NCBI RefSeq assembly: GCF_000026545.1
Contig: NC_011601.1
Origin: Escherichia coli O127:H6 str. E2348/69
Lineage (GTDB): Bacteria; Pseudomonadota; Gammaproteobacteria; Enterobacterales; Enterobacteriaceae
Length of the DNA stretch: 64,000 nt
Reading direction: 5' to 3' (one strand)
Below the pieces are notes generated by a model, which ran no database searches, had not been told where the DNA came from, and saw only the letters and a list, made by a program, of their open reading frames with translations. Position 1 is the stretch's first letter. Each line of letters opens with the position of its first letter. The translations under genes were made by a program, and so were the position numbers. Shown piece by piece: positions 3,359 through 41,204 of this stretch.

Positions 3359-3736
3359 ATGCAACGAATCATTTTAATCATCATTGGCTGGCTGGCGGTA
3401 GTGCTGGGTACGCTAGGCGTGGTATTACCGGTATTACCGACGACGCCGTTTATCCTGCTGGCGGCCTGGTGCTTTGCCCGTTCTTCCCCGCGCTTTCACG
3501 CCTGGTTGCTGTACCGCTCATGGTTTGGCAGTTATCTACGTTTCTGGCAGAAACATCATGCGATGCCGCGCGGCGCAAAACCACGGGCGATTTTGCTTAT
3601 TTTGATTACGTTTACGATTTCGCTGTGGTTCGTCCAGATGCCGTGGGTGCGCATCATGTTGCTGGTAATTCTCGCCTGTTTGCTTTTTTATATGTGGCGA
3701 ATTCCGGTGATTGATGAAAAGCAAGAAAAGCACTGA
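3359..3736 (+). CDS. ybaN: Inner membrane protein YbaN (DUF454), 125 aa
   Basis: ORF track; hydrophobic helices; conserved neighbour of apt. Confidence 0.8.
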
Positions 3737-35870: not shown

Positions 35871-38281
35871 TTGCACGTTGGTTCTGGCGCGAATGGCGTT
35901 CGCCGTCGCTATTAATTGTCTGGCTGGCGCTAAGCCTGGCGGTGGCCTGCGTGCTGGCGCTGGGCAATATCAGCGATCGCATGGAGAAGGGCTTAAGCCA
36001 GCAAAGCCGGGAGTTTATGGCGGGCGATCGGGCGTTGCGCAGTTCGCGCGAAGTGCCGCAAGCATGGCTGGAGGAAGCGCAAAAGCGCGGCCTGAAAGTC
36101 GGCAAGCAGCTGACTTTCGCCACCATGACCTTTGCAGGCGACACGCCGCAACTGGCGAACGTCAAAGCGGTGGATGATATCTACCCGATGTATGGCGAGC
36201 TACAAACCAATCCCCCTGGCCTGAAACCGCAGGCGGGCAGCGTATTGCTGGCCCCACGCCTGATGGCACTGCTTAACCTGAAAACGGGCGACACCATTGA
36301 CGTGGGCGATGCCACCTTGCGGATTGCCGGAGAAGTGATTCAGGAACCGGATTCCGGTTTTAACCCCTTCCAGATGGCTCCGCGTCTGATGATGAATCTG
36401 GCGGATGTCGATAAAACCGGAGCCGTGCAGCCGGGGAGTCGGGTCACCTGGCGCTATAAATTCGGCGGCAGCGAGAACCAGCTCGACGGCTATGAGAAAT
36501 GGTTGTTACCCCAGCTTAAACCTGAACAACGCTGGTACGGTCTGGAACAGGACGAAGGCGCGCTGGGGCGATCGATAGAACGTTCGCAACAGTTCCTGCT
36601 GCTTTCGGCGCTTCTGACCTTGCTGCTGGCGGTGGCGGCGGTTGCGGTGGCGATGAATCATTACTGTCGCAGTCGCTACGACTTGGTGGCGATCCTCAAG
36701 ACGCTGGGGGCAGGGCGAGCGCAACTGCGTAAGTTAATCGTCGGTCAGTGGTTGATGGTGCTGGCGCTTTCAGCCGTTACCGGTGGGGCGATAGGCCTGT
36801 TGTTCGAAAACGTGTTGATGGTGCTGCTCAAGCCCGTGCTACCTGCCGCTTTACCTCCTGCCAGCCTCTGGCCGTGGCTGTGGGCGCTCGGCACCATGAC
36901 GGTTATTTCGCTGCTGGTGGGGCTACGACCATACCGCCTGTTGTTGGCAACGCAGCCTTTACGCGTATTACGTAATGATGTGGTAGCGAACGTCTGGCCG
37001 CTGAAGTTTTATCTGCCGATTGTCACCGTGGTGGTTGTGCTGCTGCTCGCCGGATTAATGGGTGGCAGTATGCTGCTCTGGGCGGTGCTGGCGGGCGCGG
37101 TAGTACTGGCTTTGCTGTGCGGTGTGCTGGGCTGGATGCTGCTGAATGTACTTCGCCGCATGACGCTGAAATCGCTACCTCTGCGCCTGGCGGTTAGCCG
37201 CCTGTTACGTCAGCCGTGGTCAACGTTAAGCCAGCTTTCGGCATTTTCGCTCTCCTTTATGCTGCTGGCACTGTTGCTGGTGTTGCGTGGCGATCTGCTC
37301 GACCGTTGGCAACAACAACTGCCGCCAGAAAGCCCGAACTACTTTTTAATCAACATCGCTACGGAACAGGTTACGCCGCTGAAAGCGTTTCTCGCGGAAC
37401 ATCAAATAGTCCCGGAATCGTTTTATCCGGTGGTGCGGGCGCGGTTGACGGCGATTAACGACAAGCCGACAGAAGGCAATGGAGATGAGGCGCTCAACCG
37501 CGAGCTGAATCTCACCTGGCAAAATACGCGGCCTGATCATAACCCGATCGTCGCCGGTAACTGGCCGCCAAAAGCGGATGAAGTGTCGATGGAAGAGGGG
37601 CTGGCGAAACGCTTAAACGTTGCCCTCGGCGATACCGTGACTTTTATGGGCGATACCCAGGAGTTCCGCGCTAAAGTGACCAGCCTGCGCAAAGTGGACT
37701 GGGAAAGTCTGCGGCCTAATTTCTATTTTATTTTCCCGGAAGGGGCATTAGACGGGCAACCGCAGAGCTGGCTTACCAGTTTCCGCTGGGAGAATGGCAA
37801 CGGCATGTTGACGCAACTCAACCGCCAGTTCCCGACCATTAGCCTGTTAGACATTGGCGCGATTTTAAAACAGGTCGGTCAGGTGCTGGAGCAGGTAAGT
37901 CGGGCGCTGGAAGTGATGGTGGTGCTGGTCACCGCCTGCGGCATGTTGCTGTTGCTGGCGCAGGTGCAGGTGGGAATGCGTCAGCGTCATCAGGAGCTGG
38001 TGGTGTGGCGCACACTTGGTGCGGGGAAAAAACTGCTGCGCACGACATTGTGGTGTGAGTTCGCCATGCTCGGGTTTGTATCCGGCCTGGTGGCCGCAAT
38101 TGGTGCGGAAACGGCACTGGCGGTACTGCAATCGAAAGTGTTTGATTTCCCGTGGGAGCCAGACTGGCGATTGTGGATTGTTCTGCCGTGCAGCGGTGCG
38201 CTACTGCTGTCGCTTTGCGGCGGCTGGCTGGGTGCGCGACTGCTTAAGGGTAAGGCGCTGTTCAGGCAGTTTGCGGGGTGA
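35867..38281 (+). CDS. ybbP: FtsX-like ABC transporter permease YbbP, 804 aa
   Basis: ORF track; overlaps ybbA stop. Confidence 0.85.
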   Translation: MIARWFWREWRSPSLLIVWLALSLAVACVLALGNISDRMEKGLSQQSREFMAGDRALRSSREVPQAWLEEAQKRGLKVGKQLTFATMTFAGDTPQLANVKAVDDIYPMYGELQTNPPGLKPQAGSVLLAPRLMALLNLKTGDTIDVGDATLRIAGEVIQEPDSGFNPFQMAPRLMMNLADVDKTGAVQPGSRVTWRYKFGGSENQLDGYEKWLLPQLKPEQRWYGLEQDEGALGRSIERSQQFLLLSALLTLLLAVAAVAVAMNHYCRSRYDLVAILKTLGAGRAQLRKLIVGQWLMVLALSAVTGGAIGLLFENVLMVLLKPVLPAALPPASLWPWLWALGTMTVISLLVGLRPYRLLLATQPLRVLRNDVVANVWPLKFYLPIVTVVVVLLLAGLMGGSMLLWAVLAGAVVLALLCGVLGWMLLNVLRRMTLKSLPLRLAVSRLLRQPWSTLSQLSAFSLSFMLLALLLVLRGDLLDRWQQQLPPESPNYFLINIATEQVTPLKAFLAEHQIVPESFYPVVRARLTAINDKPTEGNGDEALNRELNLTWQNTRPDHNPIVAGNWPPKADEVSMEEGLAKRLNVALGDTVTFMGDTQEFRAKVTSLRKVDWESLRPNFYFIFPEGALDGQPQSWLTSFRWENGNGMLTQLNRQFPTISLLDIGAILKQVGQVLEQVSRALEVMVVLVTACGMLLLLAQVQVGMRQRHQELVVWRTLGAGKKLLRTTLWCEFAMLGFVSGLVAAIGAETALAVLQSKVFDFPWEPDWRLWIVLPCSGALLLSLCGGWLGARLLKGKALFRQFAG

Positions 38282-38289
38282 TGACAGGT

Positions 38290-38400
<111 letters not shown>

Positions 38401-38498
38401 CAGTGTGCATTTTGGCAATAAATATGAAACCAACTGTCATGTCGGTTTTTTTAAAGGCCGAAGGTGGTAAACCTTCGGCCTTAGCTACGTTTCCTCAG

Positions 38499-38582
38499 TT
38501 ATTCAATAAATTGACGGATCAGTTCTAGCAGCGCGATTAGCGCCTTAAGAACGATGAGAACTTTATCGAGAAAAGTTTTCAT
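38499..38582 (-). CDS. Putative 27-aa amphipathic micro-protein (MKTFLDKVLIVLKALIALLELIRQFIE)
   Basis: Hand-translated; AAGGGAG Shine-Dalgarno 6 nt upstream of the ATG; followed downstream by a perfect 10-bp-stem hairpin (about 38456-38480). Confidence 0.35.
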   Translation of the reverse strand: MKTFLDKVLIVLKALIALLELIRQFIE

Positions 38583-38656
38583 CCGTTGCTCCCTTAAGGG
38601 AGAAAGACAATCACAGCTTACCCTTACGTTGCCTGTAACTATGATTTTCTTCATGT

Positions 38657-39958
38657 GCTAGATGAGGACTGCCTCTCTCCAAATTAGAGCACCAGAATCA
38701 GCACCACCTGTATCCTGACCAGGACTTAAAAGTACTTTTCCGCACTGCGGTAATCCCTTGAGGCAGTATCACTACTAGCGTCGGGATTGTATCGCCAACA
38801 TAGCTGTTGTGTAAGTTCACAGAGATATTGCAATTGCCTCCGGATAAGTAAGGGGAGATTGCACTATGCAAATGCAGCATCTGATGGTTGGCTATCCTAA
38901 GTACTACCAAACGGCCGATTATGCGTTGAGGCTTTCAGTGATGGCTGATATAGCAACAATGAGAATGAAGGCTCTGCACTTCTGGGATAAACACGGTATT
39001 TCTGCAGCTTCTGAAGCCTTTGGCGTGTCCTGCCGCACGCTTTACTGGTGGCGTCAGTTACTGAACAAGGAAGGACCTGAGGGGCTAATCCCGCACAGTA
39101 AGGCACCTCTGGTGCGACGAAAAAAACACTGGCATCCCGATGTGCTGAAAGAGATTCGACGCCTCAGGACAGAGCTGCCGAACCTCGGTAAAGAGCAGAT
39201 TTTTGTTCGCCTGAAGCCCTGGTGCGAACAGCGCTATCTGGCCTGTCCGAGTGTTTCCACCATCGGCAGAATGATCGCTGCCGCACATGATAAAATGCGG
39301 ATGATACCTGTGCGTCTGGGATCGCGGGGGAAGGCACTGCTTGTCAAAAAGCGGTCTGCCAAACCCCGCAGGCCAAAGCACTACCGCCCGGTAAAGACAG
39401 GTGAGCTCATTGGGATGGACGCCATTGAGCTCAGAATGGGCGAACTGCGTCGCTATGTCATCACCATGATCGACGAATGCAGCAATTACGCGCTGGCGCT
39501 GGCTGTGCCGTCACTCAACAGTGATATCGTCAATCACTTCTTCAGCCGCGCAGCCCGGTTGTTCCCGGTCGGTATCAGCCAGATAATCACAGATAACGGA
39601 AAAGAGTTCCTGGGAAACTTCGACAAAACGCTGCAGGAAGCCGCTATCAAACACCTCTGGACCTATCCCTACACGCCAAAAATGAACGCTATCTGTGAAC
39701 GTTTTAACCGGACGTTAAGAGAGCAGTTTATTGAATTTAATGAGATTTTACTCTTTGAAGATCTGGCGCTATTTAACCAGAAGCTGGCGGAATATCTGGT
39801 GCTGTATAACAGCAAAAGACCCCACAAGGCGCTCGCACTAATGACGCCCGTGGAATATATTTTAAAAGAGAATAAAAATTGCAATATGTGGTGGACCCAT
39901 ACAGCTGTTTGAATATGTAGGCATCCTGACTTATAATTCACTTGCTAGATGAGGACTG
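38657..39958 (+). mobile_element. Putative insertion sequence carrying one DDE transposase gene (IS481-like architecture); ends uncertain
   Basis: Transposase ORF bracketed by a 16-bp direct repeat tgctagatgaggactg at about 38657-38672 and 39943-39958; occupies the position where K-12 has the rhsD element. Confidence 0.45.
38866..39912 (+). CDS. DDE transposase, N-terminal HTH plus integrase-core (rve) domain, 348 aa
   Basis: ORF track; catalytic D (GMDAIE), D (ITDNGKEF) and E (ICERFNRT) with 35-residue D-to-E spacing. Confidence 0.7.
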   Translation: MQMQHLMVGYPKYYQTADYALRLSVMADIATMRMKALHFWDKHGISAASEAFGVSCRTLYWWRQLLNKEGPEGLIPHSKAPLVRRKKHWHPDVLKEIRRLRTELPNLGKEQIFVRLKPWCEQRYLACPSVSTIGRMIAAAHDKMRMIPVRLGSRGKALLVKKRSAKPRRPKHYRPVKTGELIGMDAIELRMGELRRYVITMIDECSNYALALAVPSLNSDIVNHFFSRAARLFPVGISQIITDNGKEFLGNFDKTLQEAAIKHLWTYPYTPKMNAICERFNRTLREQFIEFNEILLFEDLALFNQKLAEYLVLYNSKRPHKALALMTPVEYILKENKNCNMWWTHTAV

Positions 39959-40094
39959 TTTCATTTCTGCCCGGAACCACCAAGTCTTGGGCGGAAAAAA
40001 TAAAAAAACCGACTGTCATGTCGGTTTTTTTATATCTGTATTCTGGTGCAACCATTCTGTTCTCACGACAATCGCCGTTTCAGAATACCGCCCA

Positions 40095-41204
<1,110 letters not shown>

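Follow-up and report, generated by a model that had tools for sequence, protein, structure and literature searches.

Organization of the ybbP-mnmH locus

The DNA analyzed here, a stretch of 64,000 nucleotides referred to as the window, is a 100% match to E. coli E2348/69, for which RefSeq annotates ybbP, dinQ, an IS481 transposase, and mnmH at the locus of interest (Table 1). The dinQ gene is encoded on the minus strand and, together with a predicted small RNA (sRNA) gene transcribed divergently on the plus strand, is bracketed by two near-identical terminator-like hairpins, with the insertion sequence (IS) lying between the two genes. The REP/BIME elements next to ybbP (Rfam ES036, 40.3 bits, exceeding the gathering score; naRNA4, sub-threshold) are also seen in alleles that lack the module.

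Table 1. Features between ybbP and mnmH, with positions in the window
Feature	Position	Strand	Sequence or size	Remarks
REP/BIME palindromic elements	38290..38400			3' of ybbP; inverted repeats I2 and I7; outside the module, context only
Left module edge	38411..38426		TTTTGGCAATAAATATG	Missing in REP-only alleles, kept in solo-hairpin alleles (alleles L002, L003, L010, and L014 compared)
Left hairpin + T7	38427..38452		AAACCAACTGTCATGTCGGTTTTTTT	Putative extra copy of the AgrB-type terminator
GC-rich hairpin	38454..38482		12 bp	Positional homologue of the K-12 gor/dinQ terminator (inverted repeat I14, K-12 alignment, fold)
DinQ-like type I toxin gene	38499..38582	-	MKTFLDKVLIVLKALIALLELIRQFIE, 27 aa	RefSeq WP_349808740.1, "DinQ"
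Shine-Dalgarno (SD) palindrome	38586..38605	-	CUCCCUUAAGGGAG	Inverted repeat I15; falls opposite the SD hairpin of K-12 when the conserved 5'UTRs are aligned
Antitoxin target ("agr repeat") in the toxin 5'UTR	38650..38671	-		Direct repeat D5; pairing extendable to ~38680 via G.U
Candidate toxin promoter -10	38786..38791	-	TACAAT	Inferred
Target site duplication (TSD), left copy	38802..38808		AGCTGTT	Single-copy in the IS-free allele; junctions
IS481-family insertion sequence	38809..39902	+	1094 bp	Imperfect terminal inverted repeats; megablast to other copies spans 38808-39903
Transposase ORF	38866..39912	+	348 aa	Stop codon 8-10 nt past the IS end
TSD, right copy	39903..39909		AGCTGTT	IS-free allele comparison; junctions
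AgrB-like sRNA promoter	39909..39937	+	TTGAAT-17-TATAAT	10/12 consensus; aligns to the K-12 agrA promoter
AgrB-like antitoxin sRNA	39944..40033	+		5' antisense segment (39944-39958 onward), middle stem-loop, terminator
Right hairpin + T7	40000..40033 (40002-40031 for the listed sequence)		AAAAAAACCGACTGTCATGTCGGTTTTTTT	Predicted sRNA terminator; bidirectional, thus also behind mnmH
Right module edge	40034..40081			Missing in REP-only alleles, kept in solo-hairpin alleles (allele comparison)

The toxin gene and its leader

The product of the dinQ-like gene is a short (27 aa) peptide with a hydrophobic single-helix core, which scored 40.9 bits against the NCBIfam DinQ profile NF041472 (cut-off 30, E = 1.8e-10; 54.0 bits for K-12 DinQ) and 24.5 bits against the DqlB profile, under the cut-off of 35. 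The peptide is unchanged in a divergent lineage despite four synonymous changes in the gene. A Shine-Dalgarno sequence (AAGGGAG) is positioned 6 nt 5' of the ATG start codon, and the palindrome at 38586-38605 can sequester it, as the equivalent of the closed SD hairpin described for dinQ (PMC5066626). An alignment of five toxin 5'UTR sequences gave a shared structure of 26 pairs, eight of which display compensatory changes.

Control by LexA was considered and rejected, given that no CTG-N10-CAG box occurs anywhere in the module; the position of the K-12 box (CTGGATAATCATACAG) is deleted here in the alignment of the two loci. Because the canonical box is absent, regulation differs from that of the K-12 model and the toxin promoter is uncertain, and the "damage-inducible" label carried by this toxin in RefSeq is probably unjustified.

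The predicted antitoxin sRNA and its target repeat

The segment at 39945-40033 on the plus strand matched the Rfam AgrB family (RF02891) at 53.6 bits, above the gathering score of 40 and over model positions 1-84 of 84, and its predicted fold has a z-score of -4.7. The architecture of the gene is that of a self-contained transcription unit divergent from the toxin gene, with its own sigma-70 promoter and a Rho-independent terminator (14-bp stem plus T7, 40000-40033).

A 22-nt direct repeat (38650-38671 and 39937-39958; 20 of 22 positions identical) links the toxin leader to the 5' end of the sRNA, and within it lies a perfect 16-nt core, TGCTAGATGAGGACTG, which is also given as GCTAGATGAGGACTG for the sRNA/target pairing. 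This core corresponds to the 16-bp direct repeats recorded in the first-pass annotation, which are indeed present at 38656-38671 and 39943-39958. Since toxin and antitoxin are encoded on opposite strands, a direct repeat shared by the two in DNA amounts to RNA-RNA complementarity, and the 16-bp repeats are the region of complementarity between toxin mRNA and antitoxin sRNA that is typical of dinQ/agrB-family modules (PMC3567139). A direct repeat of target and sRNA was found in every family member examined, with lengths of 34 nt in K-12, 31 and 34 nt in the plasmid modules, and 22 nt here. The duplex predicted between the 5' 45 nt of the sRNA and its target reached -57.0 kcal/mol, compared with -28.8 +/- 3.4 kcal/mol for shuffled sequences; the comparison was confined to these 45 nt because long interior loops inflate whole-transcript RNAduplex energies, and the values for the latter (-78.5 and -87.0) were set aside.

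The IS481-family element

The boundaries of the IS were established by comparing the junctions of three copies, and both of its ends contain GT..ATATTGCAATT. With the NCBIfam IS481 profile (NF033577), the transposase scored 221.6 bits, slightly below the cut-off of 224; IS481 was by far the best-scoring family, IS3 reaching 98 bits. Among Pfam domains, rve, rve_3, and HTH_28 exceeded their cut-offs, with HTH_32 (32.4, cut-off 33.7) and LZ_Tnp_IS481 (18.2, cut-off 22.2) narrowly missing theirs. The element resembles the IS481 family in that it is ~1.1 kb long, encodes one DDE (rve) transposase whose N terminus contains HTH domains, carries imperfect inverted repeats at its termini, and lies between the copies of a short TSD; it departs from the family in its profile score and in a transposase stop codon located outside the element.

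Given that the hairpins and the 16-bp repeats flank the transposase ORF in direct orientation, the first-pass annotation had read them as a sign that flanking sequence was duplicated by insertion or recombination, or of a composite element. That they are a long target duplication made by the transposase, or the termini of some composite or mobile unit carrying it, we consider extremely unlikely. Inverted ends and a 7-bp duplication, AGCTGTT, which is single-copy in the empty site, belong to the IS itself, and the IS-free alleles (e.g., that of 19KM1776) hold both hairpins and both 22-nt repeats unchanged and in the same order, with the hairpins 478 bp and the 22-nt repeats 186 bp apart. Only one IS copy is present at the locus, and other copies of the element (93-94% identity), located close to yegH on a chromosome and on plasmids, are not flanked by these hairpins and repeats. 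A transposon-made duplication or composite element was therefore ruled out by the empty site and by the other IS copies. The IS is a late, simple insertion, recent and lineage-specific, which made none of the repeats. The duplication itself is genuine, specific to this locus, and recombinogenic, as the alleles with a single hairpin described below attest; it is its connection with the transposase that did not hold. What looked like flank duplication by a transposon is the normal anatomy of a DinQ/AgrB-type module that was later hit by an IS.

Among 5,426 complete E. coli genomes, 1,315 carry the module and five carry the IS at this site, the IS being absent from 1,315 module-bearing genomes, in which the repeats thus occur without it. 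In E2348/69, the toxin and antitoxin promoters, which diverge from each other, have the IS exactly in the gap between them. The antitoxin -35 is spared, the sRNA promoter staying intact thanks to the target duplication, and a new outward-facing -35 would be offered to the toxin, with CTTACA or TACACA as candidates to combine with the TACAAT -10. This insertion is a natural experiment in uncoupling the two promoters.

The hairpin pair

Both hairpins reported in the first-pass annotation, near-identical, in the same orientation, and spaced by ~1.58 kb, were recovered with coordinates shifted by one base. The copies are identical at 25 of the 26 positions of a core, AAACCRACTGTCATGTCGGTTTTTTTA, and lie 1579 bp apart from start to start. 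Pairwise alignment extends over 40 nt at 83% identity, an extra length that is owed mostly to A-richness, and homology of the hairpin flanks outside the 26-nt core was not significant (P = 0.17-0.23).

The two copies differ in how they fold. The right hairpin forms a perfect 14-bp stem (-17.5 kcal/mol), is terminator-like on both strands, and contains a CCGAC/GTCGG stem that recurs in the agrA and agrB terminators of K-12. It belongs to the module, because homology to the K-12 agr terminators and the sequence downstream of them covers the hairpin and ~13 nt 3' of it. The left hairpin folds less stably and differs between the strands, the plus-strand RNA having an A.C mismatch (-6.3 kcal/mol) and the minus-strand RNA a G.U wobble (-8.5 kcal/mol); this hairpin is the sole terminator-like site called for the toxin unit on the minus strand. 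In divergent lineages, another substitution is found in the left hairpin, and it causes the same asymmetry between strands. Minus-strand pairing is kept via G.U in two lineages with different substitutions, a count too small to serve as proof of minus-strand selection (chance ~0.25-0.5).

A search of the whole window with a 23-mer, allowing up to three mismatches, returned these two sites only, against zero expected (100 shuffles). In a census of the 5,426 E. coli genomes, the hairpin was carried by 1,330, with at most two copies in each, on chromosomes only, and, in all matches inspected, at this locus only. Across 100,044 species-representative genomes it was found at three loci, and in metagenomes it occurred in ten contigs, six of which were inspected and all placed it at the ybbP-mnmH site; it was not found in viral contigs. 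An identical hairpin was noted 3' of a tRNA gene in one unrelated Enterobacterales metagenome-assembled genome (MAG).

These counts bear on the suggestion of a coincidence, in which both copies would belong to a generic, dispersed class of terminators or REP-like motifs. The resemblance of its stem and A/T runs to other AgrB terminators and the copy behind a tRNA gene speak for such a motif, and we nonetheless judge it highly improbable: a dispersed element would hardly be confined to two matches in the window and to a maximum of two per genome at one locus in 1,330 E. coli genomes, three loci among the species representatives, ten metagenome contigs, and no viral contig. Moreover, the true REP elements next to the module (38290-38400) have a different sequence.

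Deletion of the module by recombination between the hairpins

Two strains, LR-28 and SCPM-O-B-8794, have a solo-hairpin allele, i.e., a single hairpin between the module edges. Besides module and solo-hairpin alleles, the ybbP-mnmH site occurs in REP-only, rhsD-type, and 108-bp-deletion forms. The LR-28 allele consists of exactly the left flank, the hairpin with the "A" of the left copy, and the right flank, matching in one piece at 100%, and that of SCPM-O-B-8794 is the recombinant predicted from the copies of its own lineage. With a synthetic junction query, the best 25 matches were all two-piece and module-bearing; a shorter junction query then isolated LR-28, the sole single-piece 100% solo allele in the best-ranked matches among ~1,330 hairpin-bearing genomes. 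The hairpin copies recombine and thereby delete the module precisely, as documented by two independent alleles.

The opposite polarity, where a solo-hairpin allele is ancestral and the toxin-antitoxin module inserted at or beside the hairpin, duplicating it in the manner of a target site, is quite unlikely. It would account for the presence of solo alleles at the same site and for the origin of the left copy, which otherwise lacks an explanation. Against it, the LR-28 allele retains the degenerate "A" of the left copy in flanks identical to those of module-bearing strains, and the SCPM-O-B-8794 allele is a recombinant of the diverged copies of its own lineage, such that the two are scars that each match their own lineage, and not a single ancestral sequence held in common. 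The rarity of the LR-28 type among the best-ranked matches weighs in the same direction, as does the K-12 homology that places the hairpin and the ~13 nt after it within the module. No evidence was found that the module itself is mobile.

Having its own sRNA terminator on both sides provides the module with an inbuilt means of being lost precisely, one that has been taken rarely in nature, on two occasions at least. These alleles are reminiscent of solo-LTR-type scars, in which direct repeats bracket a unit and rare alleles consist of one hybrid repeat with the unit precisely gone; they differ in that the repeats here are only 26 nt long and are terminator hairpins rather than element termini.

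A probable chromosomal DinQ/AgrB-type toxin-antitoxin module

Taken together, we interpret the ybbP-mnmH region of E2348/69 as a chromosomal DinQ/AgrB (dql) type I toxin-antitoxin module that is bracketed by hairpins and was later hit by an IS, a reading to which we assign a probability of roughly 85%. In the proposed mechanism, the minus strand would encode a 27-aa membrane toxin behind a long 5'UTR, and the plus strand a divergent AgrB-like sRNA, predicted to be ~90 nt in length and made from its own promoter. The 5' end of this sRNA would pair with the toxin 5'UTR at the 22-nt repeat, and, by homology with dinQ/agrB, the pairing would keep the ribosome-binding site closed and trigger cleavage by RNase III. 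Neutralization of the toxin by base pairing and RNase III has been shown for K-12 agrB and pOXA-48 agrB only (PMC5066626, PMC12365149).

The right hairpin is the putative Rho-independent terminator of the sRNA and, being bidirectional, would therefore also terminate mnmH transcripts. The left hairpin appears to be an old second copy of this terminator, situated at the other end of the module immediately past the GC-rich 3' hairpin of the toxin gene. It would most likely form the 3' hairpin, or final terminator, of the toxin mRNA and, in a secondary role, back up the termination of ybbP; the ybbP role is equally possible, because the plus-strand T7 is intact in E. coli. When the 26-nt direct repeats occasionally recombine, the toxin gene is lost together with the front part of the sRNA gene, and one hybrid hairpin stays behind between ybbP and mnmH.

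It is possible, if doubtful, that the left hairpin is instead a slowly decaying relic with no function, left, e.g., by an additional agr gene or a tandemly repeated module. The left copy is imperfect and variable between lineages (one stem substitution each), its T-run has decayed in divergent Escherichia, where it reads TTTTGTT or TTTGTT, agr genes are duplicated in tandem at the K-12 locus, and no hairpin of this kind lies between ybbP and mnmH in L003, the one REP-only allele examined. On the other hand, the left copy persists across lineages whose flanking genes have diverged by 5-10%, its loop is unchanged, both substitutions keep the minus-strand pairing, and no agr-like sequence is detectable 5' of it. 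A truncated agr gene is a speculative source of the left copy: no match to AgrB was obtained on the left side at E<1, and the flank homology was not significant.

Within the preferred reading of the left hairpin as the 3' end of the toxin mRNA, a further contact may be envisaged, which we regard as unlikely: a kissing-loop interaction between this 3' hairpin and the antitoxin terminator, in addition to the site in the 5'UTR. It is raised because, if the mRNA traverses the left hairpin, its terminal hairpin (loop AUGACA) would match the antitoxin terminator hairpin (loop UGUCAU) as an exact complement. The predicted heteroduplex of left and right hairpins reaches -42.4 kcal/mol, against -25.3 kcal/mol for the separate hairpins and -5.1 kcal/mol for K-12 dinQ/agrB. 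If true, this would constitute a two-site type I antitoxin interaction that is missing from the model locus.

Relation to known systems

[quoted passage not shown] 2013, PMC3567139; Kristiansen et al. 2016, PMC5066626). The gor-dinQ-agrA segment of K-12 and the module here are collinear, with ~70% column identity. In both, a 27-aa hydrophobic toxin is preceded by a long 5'UTR in which a hairpin can sequester the SD, and part of the toxin leader recurs at the 5' end of a divergent AgrB-type sRNA. Both also have a terminator with a CCGAC/GTCGG stem and A/T runs, and a GC-rich terminator of the toxin gene that directly adjoins the convergent gene upstream. The module here differs from K-12 dinQ in its ybbP-mnmH site, in having one sRNA gene rather than two, in an ATG rather than GTG start codon, and in the missing LexA box. 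Perfect complementarity is also shorter (16 contiguous positions followed by a G.U-rich stretch, compared to 30/31 in K-12), an extra copy of the sRNA terminator lies on the toxin side, and, in E2348/69 only, an IS separates the promoters.

Related modules are found on plasmids, comprising the dql genes and the DqlB-AgrB addiction module of pOXA-48 and IncI/IncL/M plasmids (PMC5066626, PMC12365149). These are of the same family and architecture, and their sRNAs matched the AgrB family at 46-62 bits. In contrast to them, the module here is chromosomal and its toxin scores as DinQ, not DqlB. A duplicated terminator hairpin is absent from the two plasmid modules examined, unlike here, as well as from K-12 and NRG 857C, and duplication of the terminator was accordingly dismissed as a general family trait. 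A 15-nt match downstream of AgrB in one plasmid (L007), considered as a second toxin copy, turned out not to be one.

We found no paper on this locus in E2348/69, though the dql family has been described and the gene is possibly among the 14 dql sequences of PMC5066626, as dqlA. The family is a known one, and deletion of the module by recombination of the hairpin pair is a small new detail. Around a quarter of complete E. coli genomes carry this second, LexA-box-free DinQ/AgrB module at ybbP-mnmH.

Among toxin-antitoxin systems with unrelated sequences, tisB/istR-1 (PMC5066626) offers a parallel, in that a small toxin is likewise paired with a divergent, trans-acting sRNA that base-pairs with the toxin 5'UTR. 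The primary tisB transcript is inactive and becomes active by processing, and tisB is under the control of LexA, in contrast to the module here, which has no LexA box.

Anatomy of the Module and Its Two Repeat Pairs

The region matches E. coli E2348/69 at 100% identity, and its ybbP-mnmH interval carries a DinQ/AgrB-family type I toxin-antitoxin module, parts of which are recognised by both RefSeq and Rfam (Table). The first-pass annotation had described two near-identical hairpins in the same orientation about 1.58 kb apart, and this description holds: the core, AAACCRACTGTCATGTCGGTTTTTTTA, is identical at 25 of 26 positions, both copies lie on the + strand, and 1579 bp separate them. A repeat finder stretched the match to 40 nt (83% identity), the additional 14 nt being A-rich, and no significant homology was noted in the flanks outside the 26-nt core (P = 0.17–0.23). 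A 23-mer search allowing up to 3 mismatches returned exactly two sites in the 64 kb, namely the two hairpins, and none in 100 shuffles. Folding gave the right copy a stem of 14 perfect base pairs (−17.5 kcal/mol); in the left copy, an A·C mismatch is present as + strand RNA (−6.3 kcal/mol) and a G·U wobble as − strand RNA (−8.5 kcal/mol).

Coordinates (window numbering) of features in the ybbP-mnmH region
Feature	Position	Strand	Basis or sequence
ybbP		+	RefSeq annotation
REP/BIME palindrome pair 3′ of ybbP	38290-38400		Rfam ES036
Left hairpin	38427-38452	+	AAACCAACTGTCATGTCGGTTTTTTT
GC-rich hairpin	38454-38482		alignment with K-12
'dinQ', 27 codons	38499-38582	-	RefSeq annotation
Palindrome able to sequester SD	38586-38605		
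22-nt repeat, left copy	38650-38671		TTCAnnTGCTAGATGAGGACTG
TSD, left copy	38802-38808		AGCTGTT, duplicated in E2348/69
IS element	38809-39902		empty-site comparison and junctions
IS481-family transposase	38866-39912	+	RefSeq annotation
TSD, right copy	39903-39909		AGCTGTT, duplicated in E2348/69
Antitoxin promoter	39909-39937		TTGAAT-17-TATAAT, near-consensus
22-nt repeat, right copy	39937-39958		TTCAnnTGCTAGATGAGGACTG
AgrB-like sRNA	39945-40033	+	Rfam RF02891, full length
Right hairpin	40002-40031	+	AAAAAAACCGACTGTCATGTCGGTTTTTTT
mnmH		-	RefSeq annotation

The 16-bp direct repeats reported alongside the hairpins also exist, as the perfect core of a second, 22-nt direct repeat (20/22 identical), and are the antitoxin-target pair of the module. 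In K-12, agrB pairs with a 31–32-nt stretch of the dinQ leader (G88–A119), closing the SD hairpin and inducing RNase III cleavage (PMC3567139, PMC5066626); such complementarity produces a direct repeat in the DNA between the toxin leader and the sRNA start. Several observations place the 22-nt pair in this role. A repeat of this kind was present throughout the family members compared, at lengths of 34 nt (K-12) and of 31 and 34 nt (two plasmid dqlB/dinQ modules), and each of them also contains an AgrB-family match; the duplex between the 5′ 45 nt of the AgrB-like sRNA and the toxin leader reached −57.0 kcal/mol versus −28.8 ± 3.4 for shuffles; and alignment of five family leaders showed a common structure with 8 compensated pairs.

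The sRNA matched Rfam AgrB at 53.6 bits (gathering score 40). The right hairpin is this model's terminator, for which the consensus shows the same CCGAC/GUCGG stem between A and U runs. The 27-aa toxin peptide, MKTFLDKVLIVLKALIALLELIRQFIE, scored 40.9 bits against NCBIfam DinQ (cut-off 30) and is identical in E2348/69 and the divergent Escherichia lineage despite four synonymous differences, consistent with purifying selection. We also noted a recurrent 108-bp deletion variant (approximately window 38554-38669; L004, L023, and L024), seen in several complete genomes (hairpins 370 bp apart versus 478) and two metagenome contigs, which joins GATGAGAACT within the toxin ORF to GATGAGGACT in the antitoxin target. 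The toxin start codon and SD are removed, and the remnant is still labelled 'dinQ' in RefSeq.

Comparison with K-12 dinQ/agrB and dql Relatives

The whole module aligned collinearly with the K-12 gor-dinQ-agrA region, the GC-rich hairpin being the counterpart of the K-12 dinQ/gor terminator. Unlike K-12, which has two sRNA genes, the ybbP-mnmH module has one, and its toxin starts with ATG, which K-12 dinQ does not. K-12 dinQ also has a LexA box, whereas the aligned position is deleted here and no CTG-N10-CAG box occurs anywhere in the module (window 38400-38830; nt 640-1240 of the IS-free strain 19KM1776 sequence, L002); the RefSeq name 'damage-inducible' was probably inherited from the profile rather than earned. 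The module is absent from NRG 857C and is thus not universal in B2; the canonical gor-dinQ locus of that strain has a single agr gene with arsC directly 3′, whereas K-12 has agrA and agrB.

Members of dinQ/agrB and the wider dql family are located on chromosomes and plasmids, with several copies in some strains (PMC3567139, PMC5066626), and one of the plasmid-borne members is a validated addiction module (PMC12365149). We found no paper on the ybbP-mnmH locus in E2348/69, although this exact gene may be one of the 14 dql sequences already published. The bracketing terminator duplication, solo-hairpin scars, missing LexA box, and IS position are small additions to this known system.

The IS481-Family Insertion

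The first-pass annotation had suggested that flanking sequence was duplicated by insertion or recombination, or that there was a composite element. Comparison with the empty site rules out both a duplication made by the IS and a composite element. In strain 19KM1776, the same intergenic region lacks the IS and reads ...CATAGCTGTT|TGAATATG..., with a single AGCTGTT; the hairpins (478 bp apart) and the 22-nt repeats (186 bp apart) are all unchanged. The IS-free 571-bp module was found in 1,315 of 5,426 complete genomes at ≥99% identity, and the IS-containing version in only five. Other copies of the IS (93–94% identity), beside yegH and on plasmids, have the same ends and unrelated flanks. Given these IS-free alleles, the element's own TSD, and its unrelated flanks elsewhere, the repeats are older than the IS, which is a later, simple insertion.

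The best profile for the transposase was IS481, at 221.6 bits and so just under the cut-off of 224, with rve and HTH domains. Its ORF has no stop inside the IS and crosses the IS end and TSD to a TGA within the antitoxin −35 (39900-39914). In other copies of this IS, the annotation gives a C-terminally incomplete pseudogene.

The IS lies between the divergent toxin and antitoxin promoters. The antitoxin −35, TTGAAT, starts at the final T of the TSD, and the duplication would thereby keep it intact. On the − strand (38786-38815), the IS left end contains outward hexamers, CTTACA or TACACA, 16–18 nt from a resident TACAAT, and a promoter-like site toward the toxin was reported by a scan in the IS-bearing sequence only, not in the IS-free allele; the IS may provide −35-like hexamers to the toxin strand.

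Specificity, Origin, and Role of the Left Hairpin

A genome-wide REP-like motif, which would have reduced the hairpin similarity to a generic feature, was ruled out. Querying 5,426 genomes with 56 nt from around the right hairpin gave matches in 1,330 of them, at most two in any genome and on chromosomes only. An exact 20-mer, searched in 100,044 species-representative genomes with about one chance match expected at this pattern length, was present at three loci. These were the full module in Escherichia sp. E1V33, a solo hairpin in a divergent strain labelled E. coli, and an identical hairpin (AACCGACTGTCATGTCGGTTTTTTT; L009, nt 3535-3561) directly after a tRNA gene in an AT-rich, unrelated Enterobacterales MAG. 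No DinQ/AgrB context surrounded the last, a terminator probably owed to chance or convergence. Viral contigs gave no match to the hairpin.

The left copy is a peculiarity of the ybbP-mnmH module; on the toxin side of the K-12 locus, the canonical NRG 857C (B2) locus, and the plasmid modules, no copy of the sRNA terminator was found. Both copies share the loop TGTCAT (K-12 loops are GCAAA), and this private loop indicates that the left copy arose within the ybbP-mnmH module lineage. It is also old, as divergent Escherichia metagenome contigs (L015, L018, and L021) carry it within a complete module at the ybbP-mnmH site. In an IncI1-type plasmid dqlB/agrB module (L006, nt 704-743 and 1258-1274), a 17-nt partial copy (15/17) of one arm of the toxin terminator occurs 10 nt 3′ of the AgrB terminator; this match, only marginally above chance, hints at possible terminal redundancy in family modules.

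On the toxin strand, the left copy was the only terminator-like site called by a pattern scan, and after the GC-rich hairpin that precedes it comes a poor U tract, UUUAAAAAAA. The divergent Escherichia left copy reads CCGAC-TGTCAT-GCCGG then TTTTGTT or TTTGTT, and its substitution differs (GCCGG arm versus CCAAC...GTCGG in E. coli) but, as in E. coli, gives an A·C mismatch on + RNA (−6.6) versus a G·U wobble on − RNA (−9.9 kcal/mol). From these sequence features, the reading we consider best is that the left copy would form the 3′-terminal hairpin of the toxin transcript and also provide ybbP with a second terminator. The two substitutions do not suffice as proof, and a decaying relic is a serious alternative. 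The predicted toxin 3′ hairpin and the antitoxin terminator gave a heteroduplex of −42.4 versus −25.3 kcal/mol for the two separate hairpins (K-12 control, −5.1); that the left hairpin would thereby equip the toxin mRNA with a 3′ hairpin that is the exact complement of the antitoxin terminator, with loops AUGACA/UGUCAU, strikes us as quite unlikely.

Deletion Alleles and Sequence Context

In strain LR-28, the ybbP-mnmH region (...GTGCATTTTGGCAATAAATATGAAACCAACTGTCATGTCGGTTTTTTTATATCTGTATTCTGG...) retains the left flank and the left-copy 'A', after which the right flank follows directly, an exact 478-bp deletion that removes the toxin gene together with the first part of the sRNA gene. This was the only one-piece, 100% match to the solo junction among the best matches. 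Strain SCPM-O-B-8794 (L010) has an equivalent solo allele made of its own lineage's diverged left and right copies. Judged by these junctions, the hairpin pair recombines. The solo allele could instead be a shared ancestral empty site; however, the two scars each match their own lineage, which argues against this and favours deletion from a module-bearing ancestor. In REP-only alleles (L003), the hairpin and both module edges are absent altogether.

The REP/BIME palindrome pair 3′ of ybbP scored 40.3 bits against Rfam ES036, above the gathering score, with a sub-threshold match to naRNA4, and REP copy number at this position varies in module-free alleles. Finally, the module intergenic region (38282-40094) is ~99% identical across strains, Escherichia sp. 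E1V33 included, whereas the adjoining ybbP and mnmH ends (37750-38281 and 40095-40650) diverge by 2–5% in those strains, reflecting either recombination-scrambled gene ends or recent spread of the module.
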